The translations under genes were made by a program, and so were the position numbers. Shown here in pieces: positions 8,202 to 29,201 of a stretch of 64,000 nt of DNA. Numbering within the stretch: the first letter of the stretch is position 1; the number at the start of each line of letters is the position of its first letter. The notes beneath the pieces are model-generated. The model was given only the letters and a program-made list of their open reading frames with translations. It searched no databases and was not told where the DNA came from. This DNA is from Nitrososphaeria archaeon (GTDB lineage: Archaea; Thermoproteota; Nitrososphaeria; Nitrososphaerales; JAAOZN01): positions 32,001-96,000 of the forward strand of contig JARVJZ010000005.1 in assembly GCA_029775855.1 (NCBI GenBank). The letters are read 5' to 3'.

Positions 8202-8204
8202 TAT

Positions 8205-9823: not shown

Positions 9824-10756
9824 TCAAGGTTTGAGCAACTTCATTATCCTCCTCTCCATCCTTTTCAATAAGAGCAACATAGTGGCAGTTGAAAATCCTT
9901 GAAGACCAATAACTAAAAGAACTAAACCGAGCCATGCTAAGCCCAAAGACCAATATTTATCTCCAAAGATGTATCTAATGTAAAGTTGCCACAAGATGAT
10001 TACTAAACCTGGAATAGCTAAAACTGATGAGAAAGAGGATAGAAGAAATATGGGATTATATAACCACACCATTTTGAATATAGTTATCAAGATGCGAAAA
10101 CCGCTCTTTAAGCTAATCTTCTTCTTCCCAATTCTTCTCCTGTAAGTTATAGGAACTTCGGTTATTTTACCTAGGGAAATTAACTGAGCCACAATCTCAG
10201 CTTCGATATCAAAACTACTTGATGTTAACTCTAAAGTCTTAGCAGTTTCTACTTTAAGTAGATACATCCCACTACATGGGTCTCCAATCCTTTGGCCCAT
10301 AAGCAAGCTAAGAACTGTGCTGATTATGCGGTTCCCAATTCTGTGAAGAGCCGGAATGTTAGCCCTATTTTTCCTAAATCCTATCACTTCGTCATAATGT
10401 GGTATACGCTCTAACAATAAGGCTATGTCCTTTGGATCATATGTGTAGTCTGCATCCATAACTAACACATAAGGTGTTTTAACTAATTCTATAGCCATTC
10501 TTACCGCACTAGCTTTTCCAACACTGTTCTGTATAATCACGTTCACACCTTTTGATTTGGCAATTTCAACAGTCTTATCTGACGAGTGACCATCGATTAC
10601 TAGGATGTTGTTATAACCTTCGCCCTTAATTTCATCTATAACCTTACCTATTGCTTCTTCCTCGTTCAAAGTAGGTAAAACAATAGTAACAAAGTTCTTA
10701 AGCTCAGAACCTTTGGAGGAATCAAGGGCTGAATTATTCACAGATATACCGCTCAT
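9824..10756 (-). CDS. GT2 polyprenol/dolichol-phosphate glycosyltransferase (DPM1/ArnC/GtrB-like) with two C-terminal TM helices
   Basis: PTLNEE, IDGHSSD, MDADYTYDP, DPCSG, FDIEAE, EVPITYRRRIG; two hydrophobic C-terminal segments. Confidence 0.9.
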   Translation of the reverse strand: MSGISVNNSALDSSKGSELKNFVTIVLPTLNEEEAIGKVIDEIKGEGYNNILVIDGHSSDKTVEIAKSKGVNVIIQNSVGKASAVRMAIELVKTPYVLVMDADYTYDPKDIALLLERIPHYDEVIGFRKNRANIPALHRIGNRIISTVLSLLMGQRIGDPCSGMYLLKVETAKTLELTSSSFDIEAEIVAQLISLGKITEVPITYRRRIGKKKISLKSGFRILITIFKMVWLYNPIFLLSSFSSVLAIPGLVIILWQLYIRYIFGDKYWSLGLAWLGLVLLVIGLQGFSTATMLLLLKRMERRIMKLLKP

Positions 10757-10850
10757 GTACTAAAGTTCTATTTAGAGGTTCTTTTTTATTTGAACATTAA
10801 TCTCAGATAATAGGTAAGGTGTGAAAGGTTAGTTTGAAGATATTTACATA

Positions 10851-11510
10851 CTATCGTTTGTATTTGCTAACATAAAGAAGGAATCTTTCAGAAAGAAGAC
10901 GGAATCTGGCGCCATTGTAGATCTTGAAAGAAAGGTCAACAAAAGGTCGGAAGATTTGCTTCGGAGTGCGATAATATAGTGGATAAGTCGATTTACCTAA
11001 AACCGCAAATATCAAATATTTCAGAAAATGAAGTATCCAAAGTATAAGATTCTTAGGGTTAATGAGATTAATATGCTCTAATATTAGTATACCTCTAGAA
11101 ACTCTTATCATTTCAGAACAAACCCTAGTATAGTTAGGCACATACCAAAGGTTTCCTACATTTAAAACAGCATCAAATTGTCTCTCTTTAAACGGAAGAT
11201 ACTGCATATCAGCTAAAACGATTTGAATTTTTTCGATTAAATTATATAGTTTAACCCTTTCTTTTATCTTTTCCACCATTCTTTTATTCATATCTAAGGA
11301 AATAACCCTCACATTTTGGATATTTTTAGCTAATTGTAGTGAAAAGCGACCATTTCCTGCACCACAATCCAGAACAAAAGTTGGAGTGACTTGCGCTAAT
11401 AACTTGAAAGCTAAGCTCTCAAGAGGTGCAGATGGAGGCGGGTATCTAATCCACTTATCGATTTCCCTATCCAAGCTTGACAACTTATAAGACATAGACT
11501 TAATAATCAT
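10851..11510 (-). CDS. Class I SAM-dependent methyltransferase
   Basis: VLDCGAGNG motif I, ADMQYLPF..FDAV. Confidence 0.85.
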   Translation of the reverse strand: MIIKSMSYKLSSLDREIDKWIRYPPPSAPLESLAFKLLAQVTPTFVLDCGAGNGRFSLQLAKNIQNVRVISLDMNKRMVEKIKERVKLYNLIEKIQIVLADMQYLPFKERQFDAVLNVGNLWYVPNYTRVCSEMIRVSRGILILEHINLINPKNLILWILHFLKYLIFAVLGKSTYPLYYRTPKQIFRPFVDLSFKIYNGARFRLLSERFLLYVSKYKR

Positions 11511-11517
11511 CTTTTTT

Positions 11518-14500
11518 CTAATACTTTGATTTCCTATAAAAAGAGACTATAATAAAAATAAGTCCCACCACAGTTATGTAGTTAAGAAGAACAAATTCTC
11601 TACTATCTAATATAGATCTTGGTATCCACCATTCATTCCAACTACTCTTAGCCAAAGAAATTGCTTTATATTCTCCTTTAATCAATAGCTCAGAAAGAAC
11701 AACCATAGAGTCGTCTGCTCCATCAATTATAAAATTCACGGGACCGTCTATGTAGAAAGGAGTATCTACAGCATTAATGCCCAAAGTCCAGTCTACCTGA
11801 ACTCTTTCAAATTCAGAATGAGTAGTACTAGAAACATTCACACGCGTGGCAATTATTCTAAGGTCCTGCGAAGGCAAAAATTCAATTTTGATATCTCCTC
11901 TGCTAATGTTAAAATTCATAGTTTTTTCATCGTGTAATATGGTAAGTCTCGCATACCCTTTGTCAAATATTCGGATTACGAGTGTAAATCCTTCAGGAAA
12001 GGTGATCGTGGAATATCTTCCTGTGTTTTCCGAAACAATGTTTATTCTAGAAGAAGTAATGATAGGCGTTGCGTTTTCACTTAATTCAAGACTTAGTAAC
12101 TTAATGTTTCTGAGGATATCCTCAGACTGGTTATTCTCACTTAGTGGGAGTTCTAAGTTAACGGCAAACTTGCTCATTGAAGGAATAAAGAAAGACTTCG
12201 GCATTAGCGTAGCGTTTGTAATTGAATTTAACCCAAATAACAACACCCTATCTGTTCCTCGAAGTTCATCTCTATATGGTAATATGACCTCTGTCGGAAT
12301 AGCTGGTGATATTAATTCATAATATGTGTTTGAACTTCGCGTCTGAAGTAGGTAATTAAGATACGGATAAAGCTCAACAAAATAAATAGTTCCGTTATAA
12401 AATTTTCCAGCAAATATATGGGAAGAAACTGCATTCCCATCATTAGAATAATAACTTATCGTATTAGATCTATTATTTAGCGACAAGAATATCGGAAGTT
12501 TAAGAGTATGTAGTGGTATAATCTTACCGTTAACAATAATGCCGTTAGCTGTTGTAGTCTGGTTGATATGAATAGCAAGTTCTTTGGCGAAAAATTTATG
12601 ACCTGATGCACCTTCTCCGTTTAAAATAATTAATTTCCCACCTTCTTTAATCCATTCTAGGATATTATCCTGTATGTAAGGTGGCGGATAAGCTTCTGAA
12701 AAGTCGTAGGGGGTAAGTAGTACCTTAACTTTATTTGTCTTCAATTTACTTAGAAACTCAAAATCTTCAGAATAATATGTTGTATAATTTAGATTTTTGA
12801 GTGAAAGTGCTTTAATAATAAAGCTATATGTTCTCTCTCGCGCTATTAATGGTTCACTAGTTCTGCCAATTACTCTTCCGTTGATTATTTTGCCGTTATT
12901 ATTGTAGCCGCTCATGTCTAAGGCGTCTCCAGAGTTAAAGTTGATATCCAAAATTAAGTCGCTTCTGTCAACTTCATAACCAAGCGCTCTACTTTTAATC
13001 TCTTCTAATGATAAACTCCTCTTATAAATCCTTACATCATCAACTTGGCCATAGAATGGATAATTGTTTTTTCCGCGCATGCCAATTTGTAGACTACCTT
13101 CGCAAACTACTTTTCCTTTAAAAAAGGATTTAGCCACTTCTTGACCATTCACATAAAGTTTGCCAACTGTACCATTATAAGTCAGCGCTATATGAAGCCA
13201 TTCATATAGGGGAACCGGCGTTGTAGACCATAAAACATGCTCAACCCTGTCTTCTGTAATTAGATTAAAATATAATCGTCCGTCATTTTTTATGTAGAAA
13301 TGTGAACTTATAAGTGGGAAATTACCAAATTCAAGAATACATCTCCAATCATCTTCGTTTCCTTCTATCTTTATCCAAACTTCCCAAGTCATACTTGTTT
13401 TTGCTTCGTTCAAGATTTCAGAAGGTGGAATGGCTATGTAGCTATCTCTGCCATTGAGTGAGACCGCAAAATCTTCTGTTTCTAGTGTAGTGGAGTGTTG
13501 TGGCTTTAAAACCGCTAATATCGAATTCGCAGTAGGCGGAGAGCTTTGAGGTATCTCAAGCAGAATAATGCGTTTATTTTCTATTTTGATAGGTAGAATA
13601 TTCATAAGTTCTGATAGTAATCCAACATTGGCTGGTAACCCACCGTTTATTTGGTTCTTATCAAGTAACAAATATTTTACTTCTTTACCTAGACTTGAGT
13701 ATATATTACGTCTGATTGTATCGAAGAATAATTCAGGATTTATTGTCATAAAGGGTCTAGCTAAAGTAGGGAGATCAAAGCCCACAGACTCATGCTCTGC
13801 GAACTGATATATGAATGAGTTCCAAGGCCATGGGGCTAAGATAACTTCGGTATGTTTTGTAAGATTTCTTATCTGATCTATAATTTCCATGTCATTTCCA
13901 GAAAGTACTTGACCAAGTCTTACATCAGATCCGTACCTAACCGAATAATATTCAAAGTATGCGCGTGCAAAAAGTAAGGTTGAAGAGATGCCGCTAATAA
14001 ACATCATAATTATAAAGAGAAAAGCAATTACCCCATGCCTCATTGATTTGTTTTGCTTTAAAGCAAGTGTTCTAATCAATTTTAGCGGCAAGATAGGTGA
14101 TAATATTGCCAAACCAATATTAACATGCATAGTAATACGAGCATCAGGAATAGGGCTTTCCCAGATTGAGTATATAAAAAGAAGGTCGGAGACCACTGCT
14201 ATAATAATCGGAGAAATCGCTAAGATAACACCGATAATTAACGCATTATAAGATATAAATTTTCTCATAAATAAAACAGTAATTAAAGCAAGCAAGAATA
14301 TTGTCCCAAATCTGAGGGGATAAATATACCAGGGGGTCATATATGAGGCTGCGCTCAATGTAAATTTGTCAGCGACGTTATTCCAAACAATAAATGAAAG
14401 CATATACAGATAAATCGTTAGAACCGTAAGAGATAGACGTAGCACATTAGACCTAGAAAGAGAAGTAAAAGTTTTTAAATATTTACTAAAATTAAATTTA

Positions 14501-16020
14501 GTTCTGATAAATAATAATATACTGCAAAATCCTACTACAGCAGCTATCCCTATTAACATATGGAAGAACTTACCACCCGCATATATTTCAAAAAACAGCT
14601 TCGGAGATGGTAAAGTCGAATAGGACATAAGGAAGAAGACTAACACTAATAGTATAGCGACAACAAACGAAATAAGGATGTCCCACGGCTTAGATAAATA
14701 TTTATTATAGAAAATGTACACAAAGAGAACTATGACAAATAAAAGAACAATCTCACTAAAATGTATGTAGATGCCAAGAGTAACAAACGCTGCGATCATT
14801 AAGATTCTAAGCAATCTTGATTGAAAATCTCGAAGCACTAAATAAAATGTCAAAAGTAGAATAAAAAGACCGAACTGTTGCGGATGAAGCCAAAAAGACA
14901 ATCCATGTACACCAGTAAAAACATCACCTAAAGATTGTGTCTGGTAAGTTGCTTCGTAGATGGGTATTCCACGTGTGAGATTTAGATAAATTGCATATAA
15001 TCCTCCAAAACCTGAAAATAGAGAGAAAACTATAGTCGCAACTATAGACTCTTCATTCTTAAGTAATAGTTTACTTACTAGGTAAAAAGACAAGATCGGA
15101 AGAACTAGAAGAGGATATAAAGCCATATATGAATTAAGAGAAGGAAGTCCAGACGAAAACAAAAATAGACCTGTAAACATGTATAATGCAATATAATTCC
15201 ATACACGGGGGATTAAAATATGTGCATTAATAGTTCTTAGAGTTTCTCCATAATGCCGCCAATGGTCATATCCAGCAACGAACCTATCAGGAAAGTGCAT
15301 TAGGAAAAACACCACAATATAGAATAAAACCAACGCACACATTATAACTAATGTGATTAGATCAGTTAATCTGAAGTTAGAATGACTTAAGGTTTCACGT
15401 CTATGATTCTTTATAAATCGGCAAAATACAGCCACAAACAGAGATAAATTTAAAATCAAAAGGTAGTAATAACTGTTTGTAAAATTACCTTGCATTAGTC
15501 CGATAAATCCTAGAAGTGTAGCCAGAAAGAGACTTAAACCAACAGATAGAATACCTTTCTCAAGGCGCGATAACTTATCATTCCTAGATACAAGAGTTAA
15601 TATGCCATAACCCGGATAAACGAAAACTACAAGAAAAGCTCCACACGCTTTAACCCAATTAAGTATCGGTATATCAGCCCAATTAATGAATGACTGTGTA
15701 GATATCGATGGTACTATTAACAAGACAACCATAAATATTGGCCATGTTAGTAACGAGACGTAATATATTCTACTGGAAATTCTCAATTCTGTAGAATTTT
15801 CAAACATGACTAGATAAAATAGAAAGTAAACAATGATAAATATCAAAAAGAAAGTAAGGATAAAAGGCATACTAAAAATATAGTATGTAGGCAATCCTGT
15901 AGTAAGTAACCAAAATGACACAAAACTAACTATAACAGAAGCTAAGCTAACCAAGAAAATGTTGAATAGTTTCTTAAAATTAGATATTTCGTTGTCTTTG
16001 GTCATTTCTACCAAGAGCAA
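11518..16020 (-). CDS. 1500-aa membrane protein: polytopic GT-C-like N-terminal half + LamG/concanavalin-like domain + C-terminal TM anchor
   Basis: ~680 aa of TM segments with GYDHWRHYG loop; LamG signature (TWEVWIK..WLHIALTYNG..LYVNG..FYGQVDDVRIY) at ~12870-13470; terminal TM followed by basic tail. Confidence 0.75.
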   Translation of the reverse strand: MLLVEMTKDNEISNFKKLFNIFLVSLASVIVSFVSFWLLTTGLPTYYIFSMPFILTFFLIFIIVYFLFYLVMFENSTELRISSRIYYVSLLTWPIFMVVLLIVPSISTQSFINWADIPILNWVKACGAFLVVFVYPGYGILTLVSRNDKLSRLEKGILSVGLSLFLATLLGFIGLMQGNFTNSYYYLLILNLSLFVAVFCRFIKNHRRETLSHSNFRLTDLITLVIMCALVLFYIVVFFLMHFPDRFVAGYDHWRHYGETLRTINAHILIPRVWNYIALYMFTGLFLFSSGLPSLNSYMALYPLLVLPILSFYLVSKLLLKNEESIVATIVFSLFSGFGGLYAIYLNLTRGIPIYEATYQTQSLGDVFTGVHGLSFWLHPQQFGLFILLLTFYLVLRDFQSRLLRILMIAAFVTLGIYIHFSEIVLLFVIVLFVYIFYNKYLSKPWDILISFVVAILLVLVFFLMSYSTLPSPKLFFEIYAGGKFFHMLIGIAAVVGFCSILLFIRTKFNFSKYLKTFTSLSRSNVLRLSLTVLTIYLYMLSFIVWNNVADKFTLSAASYMTPWYIYPLRFGTIFLLALITVLFMRKFISYNALIIGVILAISPIIIAVVSDLLFIYSIWESPIPDARITMHVNIGLAILSPILPLKLIRTLALKQNKSMRHGVIAFLFIIMMFISGISSTLLFARAYFEYYSVRYGSDVRLGQVLSGNDMEIIDQIRNLTKHTEVILAPWPWNSFIYQFAEHESVGFDLPTLARPFMTINPELFFDTIRRNIYSSLGKEVKYLLLDKNQINGGLPANVGLLSELMNILPIKIENKRIILLEIPQSSPPTANSILAVLKPQHSTTLETEDFAVSLNGRDSYIAIPPSEILNEAKTSMTWEVWIKIEGNEDDWRCILEFGNFPLISSHFYIKNDGRLYFNLITEDRVEHVLWSTTPVPLYEWLHIALTYNGTVGKLYVNGQEVAKSFFKGKVVCEGSLQIGMRGKNNYPFYGQVDDVRIYKRSLSLEEIKSRALGYEVDRSDLILDINFNSGDALDMSGYNNNGKIINGRVIGRTSEPLIARERTYSFIIKALSLKNLNYTTYYSEDFEFLSKLKTNKVKVLLTPYDFSEAYPPPYIQDNILEWIKEGGKLIILNGEGASGHKFFAKELAIHINQTTTANGIIVNGKIIPLHTLKLPIFLSLNNRSNTISYYSNDGNAVSSHIFAGKFYNGTIYFVELYPYLNYLLQTRSSNTYYELISPAIPTEVILPYRDELRGTDRVLLFGLNSITNATLMPKSFFIPSMSKFAVNLELPLSENNQSEDILRNIKLLSLELSENATPIITSSRINIVSENTGRYSTITFPEGFTLVIRIFDKGYARLTILHDEKTMNFNISRGDIKIEFLPSQDLRIIATRVNVSSTTHSEFERVQVDWTLGINAVDTPFYIDGPVNFIIDGADDSMVVLSELLIKGEYKAISLAKSSWNEWWIPRSILDSREFVLLNYITVVGLIFIIVSFYRKSKY

Positions 16021-16048
16021 GATGGCCTAATTAGTAATCATTTAATTT

Positions 16049-16684
16049 CTATGAGATAGTTGCTTTCAATAATGTGACGTATCCAAAAAATGGTATGTGC
16101 AAAAGGTTTAGAGATTTGCTGGTAATATAGGTGGCAACATAAACATTTTTAAAATATTTTCTGAAAATACTATACCATTTGATAGGGCTGAATACGGATT
16201 GATGTGTAGGATCGCGGTCCCTTAAATTCAATGGACTCCAAGGGTTGTTTGTAGCAACGAGAACAACACCACACCTCTTCAAAGATTTTTTTACATTATT
16301 AATAACGGATTCCGGGTCTTTAAAGTGTTCAATTGTATTAATGAGGGTTACTAAATCGAAGAAATGCAGGGGGAGTGTTTCTTTCTCGACATTTAATACG
16401 AAACAACGAGACCAGTTATGAAGGGTATTAGCTGTCCTAACCGCGTATTCTGAGACATCGCAACCATAAGCATCATATCCTTGTTCCGCTAATATTTCAA
16501 CTCCATATCCGTATGCGCATCCAACATCAAGTGCCTTCTTATTCTTTCCGCCTTTTAATCTAAATTTTCTTAGAACACCTCTGTAGAAATGTCGAACTAT
16601 ATTGGCTCTAGTATAGTATCCTCCTTCATATACACCTAACTTTCCTTCAAAGTAACTCTGATCGAAAGACCCTCTTCCAGACAT
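16049..16684 (-). CDS. Class I SAM-dependent methyltransferase
   Basis: ALDVGCAYG, GCDVSEYA, IEHFKDP, DPTH. Confidence 0.9.
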   Translation of the reverse strand: MSGRGSFDQSYFEGKLGVYEGGYYTRANIVRHFYRGVLRKFRLKGGKNKKALDVGCAYGYGVEILAEQGYDAYGCDVSEYAVRTANTLHNWSRCFVLNVEKETLPLHFFDLVTLINTIEHFKDPESVINNVKKSLKRCGVVLVATNNPWSPLNLRDRDPTHQSVFSPIKWYSIFRKYFKNVYVATYITSKSLNLLHIPFFGYVTLLKATIS

Positions 16685-16696
16685 TATATCAAGTCC

Positions 16697-17383
16697 CTAC
16701 TTCTTTATAGAAAGAACACAGTAGCCAGTCGTGTAGTCCCTCTTAACGTCTAGTAAGTCGAAAAATCGAAAGAGTTTTGTGATTAAGATAAGGAGCACGT
16801 ATAAGATGAAAAGCAATGAATATTTGATCCAACGATTTCCTCTACCCCGTACTATGTAGTAAGGAGCATGCCTCATGGTTTCTCCTATCACACAGAAGAT
16901 TCCACCATTTTTCTCAAGTTCAAGTATTTCAAAACAATATTTCTCAAGATACAATCTTAAGCCTCTCTCAGTCCACCTATAGTAGTCGGCTTGAGCATGA
17001 ACACCAAACAAAAAAGGAACAGTCAAAATAAAGTAGCCTCCACCTCGTAAAACATGCCTAATTTCTGTCAGCGCTTTGCTTGTATCTGGTACGTGCTCTA
17101 ATGTTTCAATACATAAAACTGCGTCTGTGCTCTCACAGCGTATGGGTAAGTTGCATATATCCCCTATCAAGTCTGGCTTGCGCCGTTTATCAATATCAAT
17201 ACGTACAAAAGAGTTACATTGGAAAAGACTTCTATAAGGAGACTCCCCACTTCCAACATCTAATATCACCTTTCTAAAACCAATTACAGAACTAAAGTGT
17301 CTCAAGTGTTTCAACAAGTGTACATAATGTAAGCTTGATGCATTCATTACTTTTCTAAAAACTCCTTCTAACTTTGCATACAT
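16697..17383 (-). CDS. Class I SAM-dependent methyltransferase (polysaccharide-locus type)
   Basis: ILDVGSGESPY, LEHVPD, TVPF..H..DYYRWT. Confidence 0.9.
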   Translation of the reverse strand: MYAKLEGVFRKVMNASSLHYVHLLKHLRHFSSVIGFRKVILDVGSGESPYRSLFQCNSFVRIDIDKRRKPDLIGDICNLPIRCESTDAVLCIETLEHVPDTSKALTEIRHVLRGGGYFILTVPFLFGVHAQADYYRWTERGLRLYLEKYCFEILELEKNGGIFCVIGETMRHAPYYIVRGRGNRWIKYSLLFILYVLLILITKLFRFFDLLDVKRDYTTGYCVLSIKK

Positions 17384-18591
17384 TAACTCTTACATCTCCG
17401 TAGATCGTTAAACTTCATCTGTTGTTGCAGCATCTCACAATAAACACTTAATATTTTCTCCCCTAAGCTTTCAAAATCTAACTTTAACTCTTTTATTAGC
17501 TTTACGCACTCCTCTCTAACTACTTCTGCATTTACATTTAGCATATCTATAATAGCTTCAGCGAATTTTTTTTCGTCTTCTTCGACGATCCTCCCAACAT
17601 ACTTATTCCTAATTATCATTTTAACGTCGCCGACATCCGTGGAGACAACAGGAACCCCACACGCTAACGCTTCTCTTACTACTGTAGGTGAACCCTCGGT
17701 TAAAGAGCAAAGCGCCATAACATCAGCACAGTTAAGTATTTCGGGAATTTCGTCATATCTTCTTTCGCCAAGAAATATTATTTCTTCTCCTATGTTAAGA
17801 TTCTTTGCAAGCTTCTGCAAATGTTTAATGTAAGAAGGTGATCCTCTTCCCACAATTACCAACTTTGCATTTGGAAGTTTGCCCTTTACCAAAGCAAAAG
17901 ACCTTATCAAAAACTCCAAGTTTTTTATCTTCTCAACTCTGCCTACAAAGATTACCAATTTACTTTCCTGATTTATTCTATATTTTCTACGCAAGAGCAC
18001 TTTGTTCATAGGTTTAAACAATTCTGTGGGAACAGCTGATGTTGGCATAACTTCTGTCTTATACTTTATTTGAGGGTAAATAGCAGCATAATAATCTACA
18101 GTGCTCTTAGCTGCTAAAAACTTATTAATATGCCGAAGAACGAACTTCATGAACTCAACCAAAAATGGTCGTGCTACTCTAAATAACAAAGGGTGTTTTG
18201 TTTGAAAAGTTTTGAGCTGCGCGTCTAACGTCACTACCTTAAGGTTTCTTGGATAGTAGATAATAAACGGAATCAAGTATTCAAGACGGCAAGTGTGTAT
18301 TATAGTACTCTTAGGCAGCTTAAGAAAAGGTGCTCTCAGAAGTAGCCCCATAAAGTATACTTGCCAGGAACATGAACTAGCAAAACCATCAATCGGGACA
18401 AAAGTAAAAACGTACGGCTTCTTATGTTTACCGTAAGATGCGCCCACTAATGTTGTAGTGTAACCATGCTTCACCAAATAATTGAGTAAGTTCAAGGTAT
18501 ATCTTACTGCCCCACCTTGCACAGAAAAAGATGGATCGATAGGGTGTGCTAAACACACACTTATAGAAGCCGAAACTATTTCTTTAATCAA
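17383..18591 (-). CDS. Glycosyltransferase family 4 (GT-B)
   Basis: FVGRVEKIKN, EGSPTVVREALACGVPVVSTDVG. Confidence 0.92.
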   Translation of the reverse strand: MIKEIVSASISVCLAHPIDPSFSVQGGAVRYTLNLLNYLVKHGYTTTLVGASYGKHKKPYVFTFVPIDGFASSCSWQVYFMGLLLRAPFLKLPKSTIIHTCRLEYLIPFIIYYPRNLKVVTLDAQLKTFQTKHPLLFRVARPFLVEFMKFVLRHINKFLAAKSTVDYYAAIYPQIKYKTEVMPTSAVPTELFKPMNKVLLRRKYRINQESKLVIFVGRVEKIKNLEFLIRSFALVKGKLPNAKLVIVGRGSPSYIKHLQKLAKNLNIGEEIIFLGERRYDEIPEILNCADVMALCSLTEGSPTVVREALACGVPVVSTDVGDVKMIIRNKYVGRIVEEDEKKFAEAIIDMLNVNAEVVREECVKLIKELKLDFESLGEKILSVYCEMLQQQMKFNDLRRCKS

Positions 18592-18592
18592 A

Positions 18593-19231
18593 TCAAGAAT
18601 TGTTAAGCTTAAGCGCTCTTCGATAAATGATTATGGGGCGCTCATCTAACTTTTCTATACATTGAAAATCATCACAAGTATAAATATCGAGAGGAATTCT
18701 CCTTAGTAGGGCTCTAACTCTCTCAAGGAAGGCAAAAGTACACGCTCTAACACCGTTAACAAAACCTTTAAGCCTAATTATTCGAATATCAAGATCCGAC
18801 CGTTCTGTCAATACGCCACGTGACAAGCTGCCCAAAACTAAAATGGCATCTATACTATTCTCGTTTTTAGCTCTTCTACTAAGGTCTTCTAAATACTCTA
18901 CAAAACAACTTAAACTAGTCCTAGAGAAACCCAAGTTCTTTAGTAATACATACAGGTGTCCATTAAAGAGCCAGTGTAAAGTATGCGATATTGCTAATGT
19001 ACAAAAGACAGCCGAAACTGGATTCATTAAGAGCGATAGCAGAAAGAAAAAGGGCAAAAAGAAAATAAGGTCCAGAAACAAAAAAATTATTTTCTCACTT
19101 CTTTCCATGTATAAAAAACCGTGAAAACACCAATTAGTAAAGATTATTATAGTAAATTTCACTAAACGGGGCAACTTCTTACTGTAGAGTATCTTTCTGT
19201 GGAAACTATTTGGTTTCATTAAACATTGCAC
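18593..19231 (-). CDS. Membrane-anchored Pol-beta-type nucleotidyltransferase-domain protein
   Basis: N-terminal hydrophobic helices then GSLSRG...SDLDIR (GS-x10-DxD) and a third Asp in PLDIY. Confidence 0.8.
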   Translation of the reverse strand: MQCLMKPNSFHRKILYSKKLPRLVKFTIIIFTNWCFHGFLYMERSEKIIFLFLDLIFFLPFFFLLSLLMNPVSAVFCTLAISHTLHWLFNGHLYVLLKNLGFSRTSLSCFVEYLEDLSRRAKNENSIDAILVLGSLSRGVLTERSDLDIRIIRLKGFVNGVRACTFAFLERVRALLRRIPLDIYTCDDFQCIEKLDERPIIIYRRALKLNNS

Positions 19232-21057
19232 AAGATTCCCACAATAGTAGAATGCACGCTAACAACATCTCCTTCGGCATTTACCACATTTGGTCTAAGA
19301 ATTTTCGAAAGTTCGTCATAAAATCTTACTTTAAGTTCTAAATCCTTATCGTAGTAAACATCAATCCGCCTAGTTTTCAAAACCTGAGGTCTGGCAGTTA
19401 ACATAACAATTGCAGCTTTGTTCGCCACTCTTAACAGAAGCTTGCCAACGAATGAATGTAATAAATTTGGGTTTCTTGTTGACACCATAAGGTCAACTAA
19501 AGTGTCATATGGCGACCTATCGCATATAACGTATTTACCACGCCACAACCTCAGATAGATTTTAGTGAAAACAGAAAATAAAGTATCAAATACTACTGTA
19601 TAGCTGTATATCAAAGCTACTGGCTTGATTCTGTTAAAGTAGTGATATGCCAATCTTTTTCTATTACCTAGTCGCTCAATTCTAGTTAGAAATAAAAGTC
19701 TAGCTAAAGCTAGAATCATAAGTGACAATTTGTGGTTCCAGCGCATCCAAACATACTCAGCTGGGATACCATTATTTCTCAAAACCTTAACAAGTATCTT
19801 TGCTTGGGTAGTTTTGCCCACCCCATCTGGACCTATTATAAATATTAGTGATGGAATGTTATTTCTCAGTCTATTAATGGTCATCTGCACTAGTCCCACA
19901 AAAGCATCACAGATTTTGTTCCATCGAGGATAGTATTGGCTCATGTAATTCCTTGCACTATAACCGAGTTTCTTTGCCAATTCAGTGTTGGTAAGTAGTG
20001 CTATCAGAGAATTTCGTAATGCAATATAGTCATTGCTTTTAACGATTAACCCACGAGCATCAAGTAATTCCGGAATACCATTTAGATCCGTAGATATAAT
20101 GGGCTTTCCTAACAACATAGCCTCAAGTATCGTTATCGGAACATCAGAGATAACAAGTTTAAAAGGAAGACAAACGACATCTGCAGCCCTAACATATTTC
20201 CGTATTTCATTTGACGCAAGAAAATGCGTTATTATTCTTACCCGGTCATTTGCTTCAGTCTTGCTTATGATGTTTTTAAGATAAGCTATCTCTTTCGCTG
20301 ATGCTTTGTCTTCAACTCTCGCTAAAAGAATTAACTTAGAAAAAAAATTCTTACTCACATCTACAAAAGCTTTAATCAGTATGTCTGTACCCCGTAAAGT
20401 TAAAGGTGGCCCAAAATACAAGATTACAGATGCATCCTCAGGACTAATATCCTTTCTGATCTTATTAACCTCATTATCTTCTGGTAATTGTAAATCAGAC
20501 TCGCTAATTCCCTGCGGTATAACTTTTATTCTTGCAGAATGAACACCATAGTCAACTAACTTTCTTTTATTGGCTTCGCTTAAGACTACTATGTGGTCAA
20601 AAGAGTTTAATCTTCTCCTGATCAAAGAAGGCGGAATGATTGCACCTATGAAATGTATAAATAAATATCTAAAATGCCTTATCATCTCAATTAAGCCGGG
20701 TTTGAATACATCCTTCAGATCATAAATAGGGCTTGTAAGAACGCAGATAGCTGGCAAGCCTAATTTGAGTTTTGGCTTCAATAGACTGGCTACCCCCAAC
20801 ACAACAATAGCAACATCTGGTTTAATCGTCTTTAACTTTTCTAGGGCTTCTTTTGACCAACCGAACCATGAGCTTAACCTCTTTACTGAGTATACTGTTA
20901 AACCTTCAAATGTATTGGTTTCAAACTTGCTATTTGAAAGTATTATTAGCTCAAGACCTCTTTGGGCAATACCTTTACCAAGTTCGTAGATGAATCGCCA
21001 AGGTTGTTTGTTAATATTCTCCTTTTTGAAATCAAAACAGATTATACAGATCTTCAA
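19219..21057 (-). CDS. GT4 glycosyltransferase fused to C-terminal thymidylate-kinase-like P-loop domain
   Basis: GT4 (PITILEAMLLGKPIISTDLNG) in frame with IIGPDGVGKTTQ (Walker A, 19807-19833) and ICDRSPYD (TMK-type DR motif). Confidence 0.85.
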   Translation of the reverse strand: MKICIICFDFKKENINKQPWRFIYELGKGIAQRGLELIILSNSKFETNTFEGLTVYSVKRLSSWFGWSKEALEKLKTIKPDVAIVVLGVASLLKPKLKLGLPAICVLTSPIYDLKDVFKPGLIEMIRHFRYLFIHFIGAIIPPSLIRRRLNSFDHIVVLSEANKRKLVDYGVHSARIKVIPQGISESDLQLPEDNEVNKIRKDISPEDASVILYFGPPLTLRGTDILIKAFVDVSKNFFSKLILLARVEDKASAKEIAYLKNIISKTEANDRVRIITHFLASNEIRKYVRAADVVCLPFKLVISDVPITILEAMLLGKPIISTDLNGIPELLDARGLIVKSNDYIALRNSLIALLTNTELAKKLGYSARNYMSQYYPRWNKICDAFVGLVQMTINRLRNNIPSLIFIIGPDGVGKTTQAKILVKVLRNNGIPAEYVWMRWNHKLSLMILALARLLFLTRIERLGNRKRLAYHYFNRIKPVALIYSYTVVFDTLFSVFTKIYLRLWRGKYVICDRSPYDTLVDLMVSTRNPNLLHSFVGKLLLRVANKAAIVMLTARPQVLKTRRIDVYYDKDLELKVRFYDELSKILRPNVVNAEGDVVSVHSTIVGILCNV

Positions 21058-22173
21058 TTAACACAAATTTCTGTATATCGCTTCTATACGGTCTGTTATC
21101 TTACCCCAAGTATATTTTTCTTCAATCGTTTTTCTAGCATTGTCTCCAAGCATCTTCATTAGTTTCCTATCATCAAGTAGCATAGTGATAGCCCTAAACA
21201 TCTTTTCTGGAGATCTTGGAGGAACTATGAGCCCATTATACCCATCTCTAATAACATCTAAGCATCCTCCAATAGCGGTAGCAACTACTGGTAATCCGCA
21301 GCTCATAGCCTCCAGAAGGACGGTAGGCAAACCTTCATAATGCGATGGCAAAAGAAATATTGTAGCATTTTGATATATCTCAATTAACTTTTTGTAATTA
21401 ACGTGACCTATAAGCATAATTTTGTTTTCTAATCTGTGCTTTATTATCTTGCTTTTTATTGTTTTTTCTAATTCTCCTTTTCCTACGATGACAAATTTAA
21501 CATCTTGGCCTCTAACAATTTGCTTCGCGCATTCTAATAGATCAAATAGACCTTTCCTATAGCTCAAGCGACCTACATATAGAACGTAATTTCCTTCTTT
21601 CTTTTTTTGGATAGGGGTAAACTCCTTCTCATTAACACCATTCCCTACAACGACAGAGTTGCATAATCCGTAATATTTTTTTAATTCTTGAGCAACGGAA
21701 TTAGATACTGTAGTAACGACCTTCGAGTGTTCCATAAGATCCTTGACTATCGGATAGCAAACAACACGAGTTAGAACTTTTATTCCTAGCGATTTTAGAT
21801 CTACTATTTCTATGTACCGAGCGTCTTCGAGCAAAGAAGTATGTATTGTACTCACCACGGGGAGGTTTGTCTTAACACGTGGGGACAAAGGAGAGTGTAT
21901 ATGGACTACATCTAACTTAGCTTCTACTAACTTAAAGAGATCGTTAAGGAAGTAGCTAAATATGTTAATGTGGAAGGGATAGAGAGGAATAAAAGGCACC
22001 TTAAATACTTCAATACTCTCTATAGTCTCCTTTCTATTTTCGTTTAACCGGCCAGGGACGATAATGATAATATTATGTCCTCGTCTCATAAGCTCTTTTG
22101 ACAAATTATAAACGTGATATCCAATTCCTTCTTGAGGGGGGAAAGGGGTAGTCATGATCATACATATGTTCAT
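21058..22173 (-). CDS. Glycosyltransferase family 4 (GT-B)
   Basis: YVGRLSYRKG, EGLPTVLLEAMSCG. Confidence 0.93.
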   Translation of the reverse strand: MNICMIMTTPFPPQEGIGYHVYNLSKELMRRGHNIIIIVPGRLNENRKETIESIEVFKVPFIPLYPFHINIFSYFLNDLFKLVEAKLDVVHIHSPLSPRVKTNLPVVSTIHTSLLEDARYIEIVDLKSLGIKVLTRVVCYPIVKDLMEHSKVVTTVSNSVAQELKKYYGLCNSVVVGNGVNEKEFTPIQKKKEGNYVLYVGRLSYRKGLFDLLECAKQIVRGQDVKFVIVGKGELEKTIKSKIIKHRLENKIMLIGHVNYKKLIEIYQNATIFLLPSHYEGLPTVLLEAMSCGLPVVATAIGGCLDVIRDGYNGLIVPPRSPEKMFRAITMLLDDRKLMKMLGDNARKTIEEKYTWGKITDRIEAIYRNLC

Positions 22174-22194
22174 GATTAATCACAACTTGGAACT

Positions 22195-23133
22195 CTATTG
22201 TAATATAGATTTCATAACTTTATTCGCAGAATAAAGTAGAAAGAAAAGAGAATAAATGATAATTCTTATAAGAGCTAGAAAAGGAAAAACTAACCAAGAT
22301 TTGTCTTTCAGGAAATTCTTAAACATTGCGTTTAAACCTAACATTATGTGTTCTGCGAACGCATATTTTATATAATCAATCATACGCAACTTACCTTTAC
22401 TTGCAGTCCATGTCAAGCAAGCATACAAAAGATTAAGTTCGGTAGCATTTCTTTTTTGGGCTTCAAATATAGTCTTAGCTCCTAAAAATTGTTTTCTTGC
22501 AAATTCCTTCATTGAACGCATCGTATTATGAATAATTGGCTCTTTATGTATGACCACTTTGTATCCTAAGCGGAGGATACGATACATAAGGTCAAAATCC
22601 TCACCATAATGTAAGGTCGAATTAAATCCTCCTGCTTCGGTAAAAGCCCGTCTGAGAACTAAACTGTTTCCCCCAGGAAGAATAGCTTTATTCTCTATCT
22701 GCCGTTTATTAAAAAATGTAGCCCATAAGTTAAAATAACATTTTGAGACGCAGCTGGCAGTATTTGGGGCTTTATTAATGGGCCAAACGATGCCAACTTT
22801 CGAATCATTCACGAATGGCTTGATTGCTTTGCTTAACCAATCTCTGGATGGTAATATTATATCTGAATCAAAAATTCCTAAGATTTCACCCTTTGAGTTA
22901 GCAGCGCCTACTTGACGGGCTTTCCCAATCCCTCCTTTTACAATTAGAATTTGAGATGTATATTTGAGTGCTATAGAGATTGTTGAGTCTTTAGAACCTC
23001 CATCTACAATTATGACCTCTTTGAAAGGGTAACTTTGGTTTACTATACTTTGTAAACATTCACCCAAAGTTCTTTCACTGTTAAGTGTAGGAATTATAAA
23101 TGAAACTTTAAGAAGTTCTTTTGCTAATTTCAT
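22195..23133 (-). CDS. Glycosyltransferase family 2
   Basis: IIPTLNS, VDGGSKD, FDSD, GEDFDL. Confidence 0.9.
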   Translation of the reverse strand: MKLAKELLKVSFIIPTLNSERTLGECLQSIVNQSYPFKEVIIVDGGSKDSTISIALKYTSQILIVKGGIGKARQVGAANSKGEILGIFDSDIILPSRDWLSKAIKPFVNDSKVGIVWPINKAPNTASCVSKCYFNLWATFFNKRQIENKAILPGGNSLVLRRAFTEAGGFNSTLHYGEDFDLMYRILRLGYKVVIHKEPIIHNTMRSMKEFARKQFLGAKTIFEAQKRNATELNLLYACLTWTASKGKLRMIDYIKYAFAEHIMLGLNAMFKNFLKDKSWLVFPFLALIRIIIYSLFFLLYSANKVMKSILQ

Positions 23134-24166
23134 AAATAAAAAGAACTCTTGAAAATAACTTGAAAAGTAGATTGAGTATCTTTAGAAGTTTTGTTGATTC
23201 GGCTAGAAATGGATGGTTGAATTTGTAAGTAAACTTGCTAATTATATATCTATCATTTACCCTTCTATTTGCTTGTATGTATTTTCTTCGCTTTAAGATA
23301 TAATGGGTAGAGCGTATAATATCTGCATAAGTCCTCACTTTTATTTTTAATGACTTATGAATAAGACAATAGAAAAGCGTAGACAATTCAGCTAATATCA
23401 AGATAGGTAAAAATAGGATTAGAGTGCGTGTCTCATAGTTGGTTAACAACAAGATTATTCTATTTCTCTCAACATAGTAAAGCTTATCTTGTCGTAAGTA
23501 GATTGAACCCCAAGATTGACCCCACTTATGATAAACCTTCGCTGAGGGAACATACCTAGGTCTCCAACCTTTTAGCAAAGCTCTCCACCCTATGTCTGTA
23601 TCTTCGTTAAATGCGACAAAAAATTCATCAAATAAACCAGTATCCTCAAGTGCCTCCTTTGATGCTAAAAAACATGCGCCGTGGACACTTGGTATTTCAG
23701 TTAAATTATCATATTGCCCCAGATCTACTTCTCCACCGCCTCTTAGTATTCCAAATCCCGCTAAGTGGATATCAAGACCTGTTGAATTTAGTATATTTGG
23801 TTTATCTAACAATAAGATTTTAGGTTGAAAAAAACCACTGTTCTTCGACCTTAGAGCTTCTTTCATGAGCTCGCTAATAGCCTCACGATCCAAGATTATG
23901 TCATGGTTAAGAAACATAATATACTTGCCTTTTGCTCTACGCACTCCAATGTTACTTCCTCTACAGAAATAGAGGTTTGTCTTGTTTTTAATTAACGTAA
24001 CGTCGTACTTCTTAGCAACCTCCAGATCACTGCCATCATTAGAACAATTATCAACAAGTATTACCTCCAAGGGATAGTATGATGAAGAAAAGATAGAAGA
24101 AACACATTTATCTAAAACTTCTTTTCCGTTATAATTTACTATTATGATGCTTACGTGTGGATTCAA
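23108..24166 (-). CDS. Glycosyltransferase family 2 (rhamnosyltransferase-like GT2 subgroup)
   Basis: IIVNYNG, VDNCSND, FLNHD, GACFL, EDTDIGWR, VYHK. Confidence 0.9.
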   Translation of the reverse strand: MNPHVSIIIVNYNGKEVLDKCVSSIFSSSYYPLEVILVDNCSNDGSDLEVAKKYDVTLIKNKTNLYFCRGSNIGVRRAKGKYIMFLNHDIILDREAISELMKEALRSKNSGFFQPKILLLDKPNILNSTGLDIHLAGFGILRGGGEVDLGQYDNLTEIPSVHGACFLASKEALEDTGLFDEFFVAFNEDTDIGWRALLKGWRPRYVPSAKVYHKWGQSWGSIYLRQDKLYYVERNRIILLLTNYETRTLILFLPILILAELSTLFYCLIHKSLKIKVRTYADIIRSTHYILKRRKYIQANRRVNDRYIISKFTYKFNHPFLAESTKLLKILNLLFKLFSRVLFIYEISKRTS

Positions 24167-27369: not shown

Positions 27370-27750
27370 ATGTTTGCCTGCGAAGAATTTATTAGCGTAC
27401 GCTCCGGCTAAAAAAAGCCACATAATGAGCTTTTCCACTTTCTTGCCTTTTTATTAGATTTCAAAGTTGTTTATCTTGAGCGCCACCAGATTCCTTTATG
27501 CGCTTGACTTCAATAATTAAACATGTTCTTTGAGTTTAAGAACTAAATCCGGATACGTCAAAAGCATTCATGTAAGCCGTAAATTCTGAATAGTGGATGG
27601 CGTTTTGCTCTAATAAACTAATTAATCGGTAAACGTATCCTCGGTTTCTGGGACTCGCATATATATACCTTGTAGCAATCCTAATATCCTTGATTACTTT
27701 CATTTGCTGGTCTATTATTTCTACATCGACAAGATAACTTTCGTCTATTT
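27370..27750 (-). pseudogene. Decayed type II PD-(D/E)xK restriction endonuclease
   Basis: Fragments in shifting frames: IDESYLVDVEII...; YPDLVLKLKEHV / IIEVKRIKESGGAQDKQL* / HYVAF-LAGAYANKFF; directly downstream of the MTase. Confidence 0.7.
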
Positions 27751-29201
27751 AGAGGCTTAGGGGTTTGTAGAGAGGTATCCCAATAACGTAGGTTGTTTTT
27801 AACATCCTTTACTTTTATTTCCTTTTTCGCTAAATAGTTTTCTATCCAAGGTTCTAATGAATGTATGTGTTTTACTTCTTCAACGTTGACATCACTTAAT
27901 GGGCATGTTTCTATTATTGCTCTTGCTTGTTTAAGTCCAAGATACTTTCTAGTATAGTATCTCGTTGACTCTCTATAAGTCGTCATGAAGTCGCTGTCAT
28001 ATTCTTTCCTAAGTTTGTTTAAGATGTAGTTAAACCAATCTTTAACAAAGACTTGTTCATCATAACTTAATCGGCTCTTGAAGAATATTTGAATGGGGTG
28101 TGTTCTGTATGTGTAATCTTTGGATACCATTATCCCATCAACGCCGAAGACTTTCTTACATTCGTATAACCCCGCTCTACCCTCAAACCTTCCAGTATCC
28201 AATGTCTTGAGGAAGAGTACATTACTTTTAATTCTGTCATGTAATTCTTTATTAACCTTCGCTACAACTTTACTGTAATTATTTACGTCAAGTAAAGTGA
28301 CCTCATATTCGCCTTTATTGGCTTCAACATCCTTTTTCAAGAGATAATACTCAAAATGTAGGGGGTTATCTGCTTTAAACTGTTCAATGAATTCATAGAA
28401 CTCAGAGCCAGCCCTCCACTTAAACTTCTTTGATAGTTTATAAGCCCTCTTCTTTTCACCGTCTTTTGAAATTTTGGTTGCGTATACTATTTGGTCTGCT
28501 TCAGATGGTATAGCCTTCTTTTCGAAGAAGCATACACAGGTATTGGTTCCAGTGTCTGAGAAGACTTTTTTCTCAAAGATAAATAAATCCACAAGGTTGT
28601 AATATTTGAAGATTAGTTGCCTTATGTGGTTAGCATTTGCATCCCCGAAGAGGAAGTTAGTTGGTATTATGTATATCATCTTGTCTAACCCTTTCATCAA
28701 ATCGTTAAATAATGCAACCTGGTACAGATCTTGAAGCGGCTCCCTCTTTCCTTTAAAGTATTGGAGTAGGTCTCTTGTCTTTTCTGTCTTAGGCATATAA
28801 CCCTTGTAGAGATAAGGCGGATTAGTTATATGGTATAGTGGGTAAGAGTATTCAAAACTCGGAAATTCTTTAAGGGTATCAAGCTGTATTAGATTCTTCT
28901 TTATTAACTCATCTTTTACGCCTATTTGTCTTAATCTATCTGCGAAGAGCGAAAGAGCATGTTCATCTATATCAAAGCATCTTATGTGCTCAGAGAAGAA
29001 TTTATTCCTATTATTCTCTTCAATAGCTTTGACTATTGGTATAATTAAATCGCCTTTACCGCAGTATAGGTCAATCCAAGTATAATCCCATAAACTATCC
29101 TTAAGTTTTGGCAAGACACACTTACGGAAGACTTCAGATGGAGTATAGAATAACCCCCTTTTCTTTTTAAGAATTTTTGCCCTCAAGTCTATTTTCAACA
29201 C
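27681..29201 (-). CDS. N6-adenine DNA methyltransferase (gamma class, motif I before NPPY)
   Basis: GLFYTP, WIDLYCGKGDL (motif I), ITNPPY (motif IV), DLYQ, IIPTNFL, VFSDT; last ~45 aa probably read-through into the endonuclease remnant. Confidence 0.9.
   Translation of the reverse strand: MLKIDLRAKILKKKRGLFYTPSEVFRKCVLPKLKDSLWDYTWIDLYCGKGDLIIPIVKAIEENNRNKFFSEHIRCFDIDEHALSLFADRLRQIGVKDELIKKNLIQLDTLKEFPSFEYSYPLYHITNPPYLYKGYMPKTEKTRDLLQYFKGKREPLQDLYQVALFNDLMKGLDKMIYIIPTNFLFGDANANHIRQLIFKYYNLVDLFIFEKKVFSDTGTNTCVCFFEKKAIPSEADQIVYATKISKDGEKKRAYKLSKKFKWRAGSEFYEFIEQFKADNPLHFEYYLLKKDVEANKGEYEVTLLDVNNYSKVVAKVNKELHDRIKSNVLFLKTLDTGRFEGRAGLYECKKVFGVDGIMVSKDYTYRTHPIQIFFKSRLSYDEQVFVKDWFNYILNKLRKEYDSDFMTTYRESTRYYTRKYLGLKQARAIIETCPLSDVNVEEVKHIHSLEPWIENYLAKKEIKVKDVKNNLRYWDTSLQTPKPLNRRKLSCRCRNNRPANESNQGY

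Follow-up and report, generated by a model that had tools for sequence, protein, structure and literature searches.

Why would a glycosyltransferase be joined, in a single reading frame, to a kinase that resembles thymidylate kinase (Tmk), and what might such a kinase share with a putatively membrane-anchored nucleotidyltransferase (NTase) encoded by the next gene? These questions are raised by a stretch of DNA of 64,000 nucleotides (nt) from a Nitrososphaeria archaeon (hereafter, the window; contig JARVJZ010000005.1, positions 32,001 to 96,000, of assembly GCA_029775855.1, a genome of 1.51 Mb in 6 contigs that is 98% complete). As a first-pass annotation of the window had described, six genes follow each other on its minus strand in the order GT4a > GT4b::KIN > TM-NTase > GT4c > MT2 > MT1, with a spacing of 0–13 nt between the listed open reading frames (ORFs); here, GT4 stands for family 4 glycosyltransferases, KIN for the kinase domain, TM-NTase for the NTase with its predicted transmembrane (TM) segment, MT for methyltransferases, and a double colon for fusion in one frame. 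Our analysis reveals that the conserved core of this arrangement is the pair of KIN and TM-NTase, which recurs, adjacent or fused, in the polysaccharide loci of other organisms. The special part of the surface-glycan operon would be a four-gene unit, GT4b, KIN, TM-NTase, and GT4c, which in the window is laid out as follows.

19219–21057, minus strand: GT4b::KIN fusion gene, 612 amino acids (aa), no gap to GT4a
19873–21057, minus strand: GT4b domain, residues 1–395 of the fusion, above the cut-offs of both GT-B models (Pfam Glycos_transf_1, 68.7 bits against 26.4; Glyco_transf_4, 46.6 bits against 28.5)
19219–19872, minus strand: KIN domain, residues 396–612 of the fusion plus the stop codon, a Tmk-derived P-loop kinase
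18593–19231, minus strand: TM-NTase as the listed ORF (PF01909, NTP_transf_2, 25.4 bits against a cut-off of 21), 1-nt gap to GT4c
17383–18591, minus strand: GT4c, a GT4 of 402 aa (Glycos_transf_1, 126.5 bits)

An initial search with the NTase returned 10 proteins from 243 candidates, and 15 related loci (L001–L015, 1 from genome contigs and 14 from metagenome contigs) were analysed by tblastn and frame analysis. KIN lies directly upstream of the NTase, overlapping it or no more than about 50 nt away, in 11 of the 15 loci (L001–L003, L006–L008, L010–L013, and L015), that is, in 11 of the 13 informative ones, given that L009 and L014 have no upstream DNA. Several of the loci are near-duplicates, so that the 11 adjacencies amount to approximately 8 independent lineages. 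L004 and L005, which are the same sequence, carry a 43-residue remnant of GT4b before the NTase, with intact GT4b and KIN genes 3.5 kb upstream on L005. In the window itself, the end of KIN and the probable start codon of the NTase share 1 nt. The two proteins are also found as one: among the 150 best NTase representatives, 19 are KIN::TM-NTase fusions, 15 of full length (158–227 bits) and 4 partial, and the Atlas holds a 437-aa fused KIN-NTase cluster with 67 members. On the other side of the NTase, fusions to GT4 occur in P0050 (Methanosarcina siciliae, annotated ‘Glycosyltransferase’), P0080, P0118, and P0135; the GT4 halves of two of these resemble GT4c (38% identity over 346 aa in P0050 and 31% over 385 aa in P0118). 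Further combinations include GT4::NTase (P0181), NTase::methyltransferase (P0045), NTase::Alg14 (P0131), KIN::NTase::polysaccharide deacetylase (P0185), and P0076, in which a weak match to Polysacc_synt comes after the NTase. Thus, with GT4b::KIN, KIN::NTase, and NTase::GT4 all represented, each junction of the series GT4b-KIN-NTase-GT4c occurs fused somewhere, and this chain of natural fusions points to four proteins that may act together.

The genes around the pair are those of glycan assembly. In the relatives, GT4b is a separate gene that always ends in an overlap with the KIN gene; orthologues of GT4a lie directly upstream of GT4b in seven loci (L001–L003, L006, L007, L011, and L015), and the longer order GT2b-GT2a-GT4a-GT4b-KIN-NTase (GT2, family 2 glycosyltransferases) is kept in L003 and L007, the order GT2a-GT4a-GT4b-KIN-NTase in L002 and L011. 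GT4c directly follows the NTase in L012. Throughout, the neighbours are GT2, GT4, Alg13/14, a Wzx-like protein, deacetylases, and sugar-nucleotide enzymes. In L013 (218–2519), the module neighbours genes for an NTP_transferase, a GHMP kinase, and a SIS-domain protein, a set that looks like a heptose-nucleotide pathway. Given the Rml genes of the window and the heptose-like set of L013, the sugar supply varies while the KIN-NTase pair stays. Adjacency, gene fusions, and glycan context all strongly support the co-occurrence of the two families within polysaccharide loci, which the first-pass annotation had put forward as a check of its proposal.

Is KIN, then, simply a thymidylate kinase? Its homology to Tmk is real: a profile of the KIN family retrieves Tmk chains as the top matches in the PDB (E 1.1e-8), with aligned P-loop and DR-to-C-terminus stretches that span the fold, and genuine Tmks reach 16–59 bits over their full length against the same profile, whereas single-sequence searches of the PDB gave P-loop or chance matches only. 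As had been noticed from the sequence, the 612-aa frame joins a GT4 to a kinase in which Walker A and the DR motif are intact. The Walker A motif GPDGVGKTT occupies 19807–19833, the DR motif lies within ICDRSPYDTLVD (19492–19527), and the lid RR is found within 19342–19380; the pattern GxDGxGK(S/T)T plus DR(Y/H) of deoxythymidine monophosphate (dTMP) kinases is present as GPDGVGKTT and CDRS and is kept across the KIN family, which includes 31 stand-alone homologues of 190–265 aa. Judged by its sequence, KIN is nevertheless separate from the housekeeping Tmk. The 612-aa protein matches Thymidylate_kin in the P-loop only (residues 409–432, 21.4 bits against a cut-off of 27), the KIN domain alone scores 24.8 bits against PF02223, again under the cut-off of 27, and against TIGR00041 it scores 21.8 bits with a cut-off of 83.25; a genuine Tmk of 200 aa, encoded at another place of the same contig, reaches 109.2 bits with the latter model. 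In a kinase tree (a quick IQ-TREE run under LG+G4 with 94 rows and support by the Shimodaira–Hasegawa-like approximate likelihood ratio test, SH-aLRT, only, leaving out the 4 partial fusions and, of the 32 rows of the KIN alignment, 3 that fall short of 200 aa), the 31 Tmks and all 63 KIN-type rows, the KIN of the window included, fall on opposite sides of a branch with an SH-aLRT of 99.

The divergence extends to motifs that lie between the P-loop and the lid. In the consensus of the same 31 Tmks, the motifs T.EP, ALLFAADR, and SSxAYQ, which have a role in dTMP binding, stand where the 63 KIN-type rows show y.W.R..h, an insertion, and DtlVdl. The insertion, of approximately 21 residues relative to Tmk, is the stretch that had been read as hydrophobic inserts in the kinase; the inserted segment is there, but no span of 19 residues in KIN reaches a Kyte–Doolittle mean of 1.6, so that its hydrophobic stretches are not predicted TM helices. 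Nine residues are invariant in the KIN family (W48, R50, D124, R125, D129, D133, R174, D181, and Y191), and Walker A is nearly so. With these conserved motifs intact, KIN looks catalytically active, and the Trp and the several Asp residues of the acceptor region would suit a sugar. Model score, tree, and motif comparison thus agree with the earlier suggestion that KIN does not serve dTMP metabolism.

The partner of KIN is an NTase of the Pol-beta type. Its catalytic motifs LGSLSRG (18815–18835), SDLDIR (18782–18799), and IPLDIYTCD (18671–18697) make up the GS..DxD..D triad, which the first reading of the sequence had rightly called intact and which is close to universal in the family: among the 150 best representatives, D146 is kept in 150, D148 in 150, D182 in 141, G134 in 149, and S135 in 143 (positions renumbered by +4 to fit the listed ORF). 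The enzyme therefore looks catalytically active. The probable start codon is that of residue 5 in the listed ORF, an ATG at 19219 that shares 1 nt with the upstream TAA (TAATG) and with which the database copy also begins; the overlap with the kinase gene shrinks accordingly from the 13 nt given previously to 1 nt. Of the N-terminal TM helices that had been described, the hydrophobic character stands, in the form of a single stretch at residues ~45–82 (18986–19099), approximately 38 residues with a Kyte–Doolittle maximum of 2.63, long enough for a two-helix hairpin. This putative hairpin is flanked by E46 and H83, each of which is kept in 148 of the 150 representatives, and the motif HTLHW..GH is found at 18947–18985. 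The catalytic domain and the two ends of the hairpin would lie on the cytoplasmic side, together with the soluble GT4s and KIN, and the conservation of E46 and H83 hints at residues at the membrane interface that contact a membrane-bound substrate.

The NTase family is large, with 495 clusters recovered by its profile at E<=1e-3, 421 at E<=1e-10, and 228 at E<=1e-30, and remote from anything solved: in the PDB, the profile matches only a minimal MNT-type NTase, at E 0.18. A Pfam scan of the protein returned PF01909 and PF18765 only, with no LicD family at E<=0.01 and no PF14907. Although small NTases of this kind recall antitoxins, the results support the earlier view that this one does not belong to a toxin-antitoxin pair, and they assign it to no known defence system either: the MntA model NF047752 gives 15.9 bits against a cut-off of 60, no HEPN domain was found in the scanned proteins of the locus, and PADLOC reported no defence system in the locus and no match to the NTase, its weak hits being confined to mad2 on MT1 (53 bits) and MT2 (17.7) and PDC-M37B at the kinase P-loop (16.5).

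What of the fusion that drew attention to the locus? GT4b is a member of a divergent GT4 subfamily, with LPFKLVxSDxPIxILEAM where the alignment shows the usual ..E......EAM in GT4a and GT4c. In the region of the EX7E motif typical of GT4, the second Glu (E312) is invariant and the first position reads S-D in the subfamily coupled to KIN, which also has a conserved RQPW motif near the N-terminus; these features may reflect an unusual donor or acceptor. In all 10 relatives that have both genes (L001, L002, L003, L005, L006, L007, L008, L010, L011, and L015, several of them near-duplicates), GT4b and KIN are two ORFs, with KIN always in the -1 frame relative to GT4b and overlapping its end by 4–40 nt. 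The sole starts available to KIN there are TTG or GTG codons a few residues ahead of the P-loop strand, and the TTG starts overlap the TGA stop of GT4b or lie near it, which suggests coupling by termination and reinitiation. A word-based search among longer homologues returned 3 of 1906 candidates, namely the 612-aa protein of the window and two KIN::NTase proteins, and hence no second GT4::KIN fusion, which is weak evidence of absence. A contig that Logan assembled from run X1 (word depth 28), possibly the source sample, matches 19300–20500 identically, and a contig from a different study (X3) covers 19867–20218 with 3 substitutions and no indel; because the latter starts at 19867, only part of the junction (19843–19905) is covered. 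Runs X2 and X3 cover parts of the stretch only, and a contig from an RNA-labelled library (X5) extends over 19965–20205, too short for a claim of transcription. The fusion is probably real, lineage-specific, and informative, but the module is not defined by it, contrary to the prominence it was first given: the fusion is found in this genome only, and our core conclusions do not depend on it.

The pairing of KIN with an NTase extends beyond the TM-NTase family. For 18 KIN-like loci in further genomes of the phylum, we scanned the neighbours within 1.5 kb, and in 9 of these (L038, L040, L042, L044–L047, L049, and L050) KIN adjoins an NTase resembling PF14907, in the order glycosyltransferase (GT), KIN, NTase. 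These partners have about 230–330 aa, score 23–34 bits (2 of the 9 above the cut-off of 31.2), and have a third Asp in addition to the invariant DxD. In 10 of the 18 loci, an adjoining gene encodes a GT4 or GT2. On the KIN side of the tree, the kinases of the PF14907-type loci group together as a clade (SH-aLRT 99), and the Atlas includes a 630-aa cluster with both PF14907 and Thymidylate_kin. Thus, the kinase family and the gene order are the same as in the window, whereas the NTase family differs and lacks the N-terminal hairpin motifs of TM-NTase; an alignment of the two NTase families by hhalign (probability 0.7%, E 0.08, 15 columns only) indicates that they are not close. By homology and gene order, the kinase-NTase logic is one that recurs with a second NTase family, equally uncharacterised. 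In the excerpted text of one report, a pair of Tmk-like kinase and PF14907-type NTase next to a phosphoenolpyruvate mutase is likewise called uncharacterised (PMC8942020).

The six genes occupy the middle of a co-directional glycan locus of approximately 25 kb (1680–26162), and the packed operon is larger than the six, with GT2a and GT2b upstream and a protein with a Laminin_G_3 (LamG) domain downstream. The other members of this neighbourhood are listed below.

21058–22173, minus strand: GT4a, a canonical GT4 of 371 aa (Glycos_transf_1, 174.7 bits; Glyco_transf_4, 85.1 bits)
16697–17383, minus strand: MT2, an S-adenosylmethionine (SAM) methyltransferase (Methyltransf_11, 48.6 bits), 1-nt overlap with GT4c
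16049–16684, minus strand: MT1, a SAM methyltransferase (Methyltransf_23, 57.2 bits; Methyltransf_11, 56.6 bits), 12-nt gap to MT2
22195–23133, minus strand: GT2a (Glycos_transf_2, 81.8 bits), upstream of GT4a
23108–24166, minus strand: GT2b (Glycos_transf_2, 81.7 bits), upstream of GT4a
11518–16020, minus strand: polytopic membrane protein of 1500 aa (Laminin_G_3, 97.8 bits, residues 856–1009), the next gene downstream of MT1
5281–7155, minus strand: protein of 624 aa inside the glycan locus, without a Pfam or NCBIfam match

By Pfam, MT1 and MT2 are both class-I methyltransferases, and MT2 has a C-terminal hydrophobic segment centred, by hydropathy, on residues 192–204. The membrane part of the 1500-aa protein matches no Pfam family, and the protein is a candidate GT-C-like polymerase or transferase for the glycan of the locus. 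The wider locus also encodes RmlD, RmlB, RmlC, RmlA, an epimerase and two further epimerase genes, a DegT aminotransferase, a GT2, and a third methyltransferase. Just outside it, at 27681–29201 on the minus strand, a gene encodes a 506-aa protein with a match to N6_Mtase (DNA methylase). The G+C content is 0.33–0.375 over 8001–24000, against 0.42–0.48 in most of the remaining window, which is compatible with a horizontally exchanged glycan island; such an island would fit the patchy distribution of the module.

Among 401 genomes sampled from the class, a true orthologue of the NTase (324 bits) is present in the genome of the window only; 8 other genomes have matches of 25–31 bits that are confined to the catalytic core and were treated as generic NTases. 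Among 401 genomes of the phylum, TM-NTase is found at E<=1e-15 in two, G000 and G677. In G677, the NTase and KIN, the latter preceded by an overlapping GT4, belong to one cluster in which they are 10 kb apart, and Alg14 and Alg13 adjoin the NTase. The cluster is partly syntenic with the locus of the window, containing homologues of the 1500-aa protein, the 624-aa protein, GT4a (47% identity), GT4c (41%), MT2 (40%), and the third methyltransferase. The homologue of the 1500-aa protein (28% identity over 817 aa and 25% over 427 aa) directly adjoins the NTase, and the 624-aa protein is 28% identical over 357 aa to a 621-aa protein of the cluster. The Atlas contains related clusters from both Archaea and Bacteria, although the shares of individual taxa rest on few members; the family is thus not restricted to archaea, to whose surface glycans it had first been assigned.

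What could the pair do? We tentatively favour, as the likeliest of the readings considered here, a membrane-tethered step at the cytoplasmic face in which KIN and TM-NTase would put a phosphate-linked modification on a lipid-linked glycan. Under this reading, KIN is a P-loop kinase of thymidylate kinase descent with a rebuilt acceptor pocket, and the NTase is tethered to the cytoplasmic membrane face through its N-terminal hydrophobic hairpin. The substrate would most likely be a lipid-linked glycan intermediate: KIN would phosphorylate a sugar hydroxyl just presented by GT4b, and the NTase would next either add a nucleotidyl or phospho-linked group to the resulting phosphate or transfer such a group from it, with GT4b acting just before and GT4c just after the pair. 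The product would be a phosphate-linked decoration or linkage, of the phosphodiester type, which in this organism the neighbouring methyltransferases may modify further. Several observations weigh against this proposal. Enzymes of the Tmk family normally phosphorylate a nucleotide phosphate rather than a sugar hydroxyl, and small Pol-beta NTases normally transfer a nucleoside monophosphate (NMP) to hydroxyls, so that a kinase-first order is not the sole option. KIN-like genes are present at E<=1e-15 in 26 of the 401 genomes of the phylum, against 2 for TM-NTase; KIN is hence not strictly dependent on TM-NTase, and no NTase was seen within the 1.5-kb flanks of 9 of the 18 KIN-like loci. Finally, the methyltransferases are not the consistent partners that the first-pass annotation took them for: tblastn detected one weak MT1 match (L001) and no MT2 match in L001–L015. 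G677 does have relatives of MT2 and of the third methyltransferase, and a single NTase::methyltransferase fusion is known from P0045, but the link is otherwise inconsistent.

A more far-reaching version of the same idea, which we consider decidedly unlikely, holds that the four products GT4b, KIN, TM-NTase, and GT4c work as a single membrane-bound assembly line and build a phosphodiester-type linkage into a lipid-linked glycan by an undescribed route. The NTase would then turn the sugar phosphate into a glycan-diphospho-nucleoside, or use the phosphate as an acceptor, GT4c (or, in this genome, a methyltransferase) would complete the linkage, and the same logic would apply, with PF14907-like NTases, in many other archaea and bacteria. 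A rather different division of labour, somewhat unlikely but to be taken seriously, would make the module a donor-supply triad in which KIN phosphorylates a free sugar or polyol and the NTase, with a nucleoside triphosphate, converts the product into a nucleoside diphosphate-activated donor for GT4b and/or GT4c, that is, the logic of a salvage-type kinase, pyrophosphorylase, and transferase in unusual folds. GT4 enzymes do require nucleotide-activated donors, the order GT4-KIN-NTase(-GT4) is conserved with each neighbouring pair found fused, and GT4b belongs to a divergent GT4 subfamily. Moreover, the surrounding sugar-nucleotide genes differ from locus to locus (Rml in the window, GHMP kinase, SIS, and NTP_transferase in L013, and UDP-N-acetylglucosamine (UDP-GlcNAc) 2-epimerase in L007 and G677), so that a module that stays constant could supply its own special donor. 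But a soluble pathway needs neither a membrane hairpin nor near-invariant interface residues, the fusions of the NTase to Alg14, to a deacetylase, and (weakly) to a Wzx-like domain point to a membrane-bound intermediate, and we know of no sugar-phosphate nucleotidylyltransferase of the Pol-beta fold and no sugar kinase of the Tmk fold.

Three explanations remain. It is quite improbable that TM-NTase serves mainly as an anchor for the GT4s and KIN, or nucleotidylates a protein, with KIN as a regulatory ATPase and no new group on the glycan itself. Alg14 anchors Alg13 at the membrane in this manner, and the fusion partners of the NTase include a variety of soluble enzymes as well as Alg14, next to which, with Alg13, the NTase stands in G677; its closest solved relatives, at E 0.18, are minimal MNT-type NTases, some of which AMPylate proteins. 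A pure anchor, however, would not need the catalytic motifs that both proteins conserve, namely, the near-universal triad of the NTase and, in KIN, the motifs including the lid Arg and the invariant Asp cluster of the acceptor region. Still harder to credit is a dedicated nucleotide kinase that recycles dTMP or NMP for the dTDP-sugar pathway of the locus, with the NTase as an unrelated neighbour. Such a role could draw on the full-length homology to Tmk and on the presence of RmlA, RmlB, RmlC, and RmlD in the same locus, but the genome already has a genuine Tmk, which far outscores KIN with TIGR00041, the split between the two kinase groups is well supported, the Tmk motifs are replaced, some loci with the module lack Rml genes, and KIN is fused to the NTase in 19 of the 150 representatives. 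We regard as very improbable, too, that the locus has been misread, the fusion being an assembly frameshift or the NTase acting as antitoxin in a degenerate MNT-HEPN or defence system. The two ORFs with KIN at -1 in all 10 relatives and the lack of a second GT4::KIN fusion in the word-based search are what a frameshift would predict, and the weak MntA match of 15.9 bits is what a decayed antitoxin might leave behind; yet the assembly from X1 is identical (if possibly of the source sample), the X3 contig shows no indel over its part of the junction, and neither a HEPN domain among the scanned proteins of the locus nor, by PADLOC, a defence system was found.

Whichever of the glycan readings holds, the KIN/TM-NTase family is a large one in the glycan loci of archaea and bacteria for which we found neither a curated model nor a paper. 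Its members are annotated in the source records as ‘thymidylate kinase’, ‘predicted nucleotidyltransferase’, ‘nucleotidyltransferase’, or ‘glycosyltransferase’, labels that hide the genes of the module and inflate the counts of Tmk. Phosphate-linked decorations of glycans, such as phosphocholine, ribitol phosphate, methyl phosphate, and phosphoramidate, shape immune recognition, phage adsorption, and the properties of the envelope and, to our knowledge, each of the known routes to them was discovered enzyme by enzyme. Should the assembly-line version prove correct, the pair would be an enzyme system of general use, so far overlooked, that makes phosphate-bridged surface glycans. As Methanosarcina siciliae is a cultured carrier of an NTase::GT4 fusion, the question is open to experiment.

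How does the module compare with characterised systems? The initial statement that none is built from these folds agrees with our searches: Pfam and NCBIfam have no specific model for either KIN or TM-NTase, and a literature search that excluded supplements found no published description of the KIN-NTase module, which is not proof of absence. With Tmk (PF02223, TIGR00041; PDB 5xbh, 2pbr, and 2wwf), KIN shares the fold family, the GxDGxGKTT P-loop, and the DR motif, but it forms a separate clade with an insertion of ~21 residues and three replaced motifs, always occurs in a glycan context, and is often fused to an NTase. TM-NTase has in common with the minimal Pol-beta NTases (MNT/MntA and the aminoglycoside and lincosamide O-nucleotidyltransferases) the small domain and its GS...DxD...D core; unlike them, it has the N-terminal hairpin with E46, H83, and HTxHW..GH, and its partners are a kinase and GTs, with no HEPN domain found. 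The ANT and Lnu enzymes of that group nucleotidylate sugar hydroxyls and thus provide a chemical precedent.

Among systems that decorate glycans, WbdD of Escherichia coli O9a combines a kinase with a methyltransferase and caps the polymannose O-antigen with methyl phosphate. The first-pass annotation had drawn this functional analogy: like the WbdD locus, the window brings together a kinase, methyltransferases, and GT4 genes resembling mannosyltransferases in a polysaccharide locus. The kinase of WbdD, however, has a protein-kinase-like rather than a P-loop fold and is fused to its methyltransferase, whereas here an NTase is present and the methyltransferases are separate genes that are not conserved with the module; a Pfam scan of the fusion protein found P-loop families only and neither Pkinase nor APH. 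Phosphotransferases of the LicD/fukutin type and the O-methyl phosphoramidate (MeOPN) pathway of Campylobacter, the latter with a kinase, a cytidylyltransferase, a P-loop kinase, and methyltransferases, represent NTase-fold or nucleotide-activated routes that place phosphodiester or methyl-phospho decorations on surface glycans. These are possible models for the product, but their enzyme folds and gene sets differ from those of the module, and nothing in the window indicates a precursor pathway for choline, ribitol, or phosphoramidate. A parallel for the proposed order of steps comes from the biosynthesis of the lasso peptide pseudomycoidin, in which, according to the excerpted text of the report, the uncharacterised NTase-fold enzyme PsmN adds a hexose only to the kinase-phosphorylated substrate and requires its two Asp residues for activity (PMC6993621). 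As far as that text goes, PsmK and PsmN act as proposed here, a kinase followed by an NTase-fold enzyme, but on a peptide and with a kinase resembling HPr kinase. The KIN/TM-NTase module would thus belong to a known kind of chemistry, the phospho-decoration of glycans, while being built from different folds and, in one lineage, elaborated by the GT4::KIN fusion.

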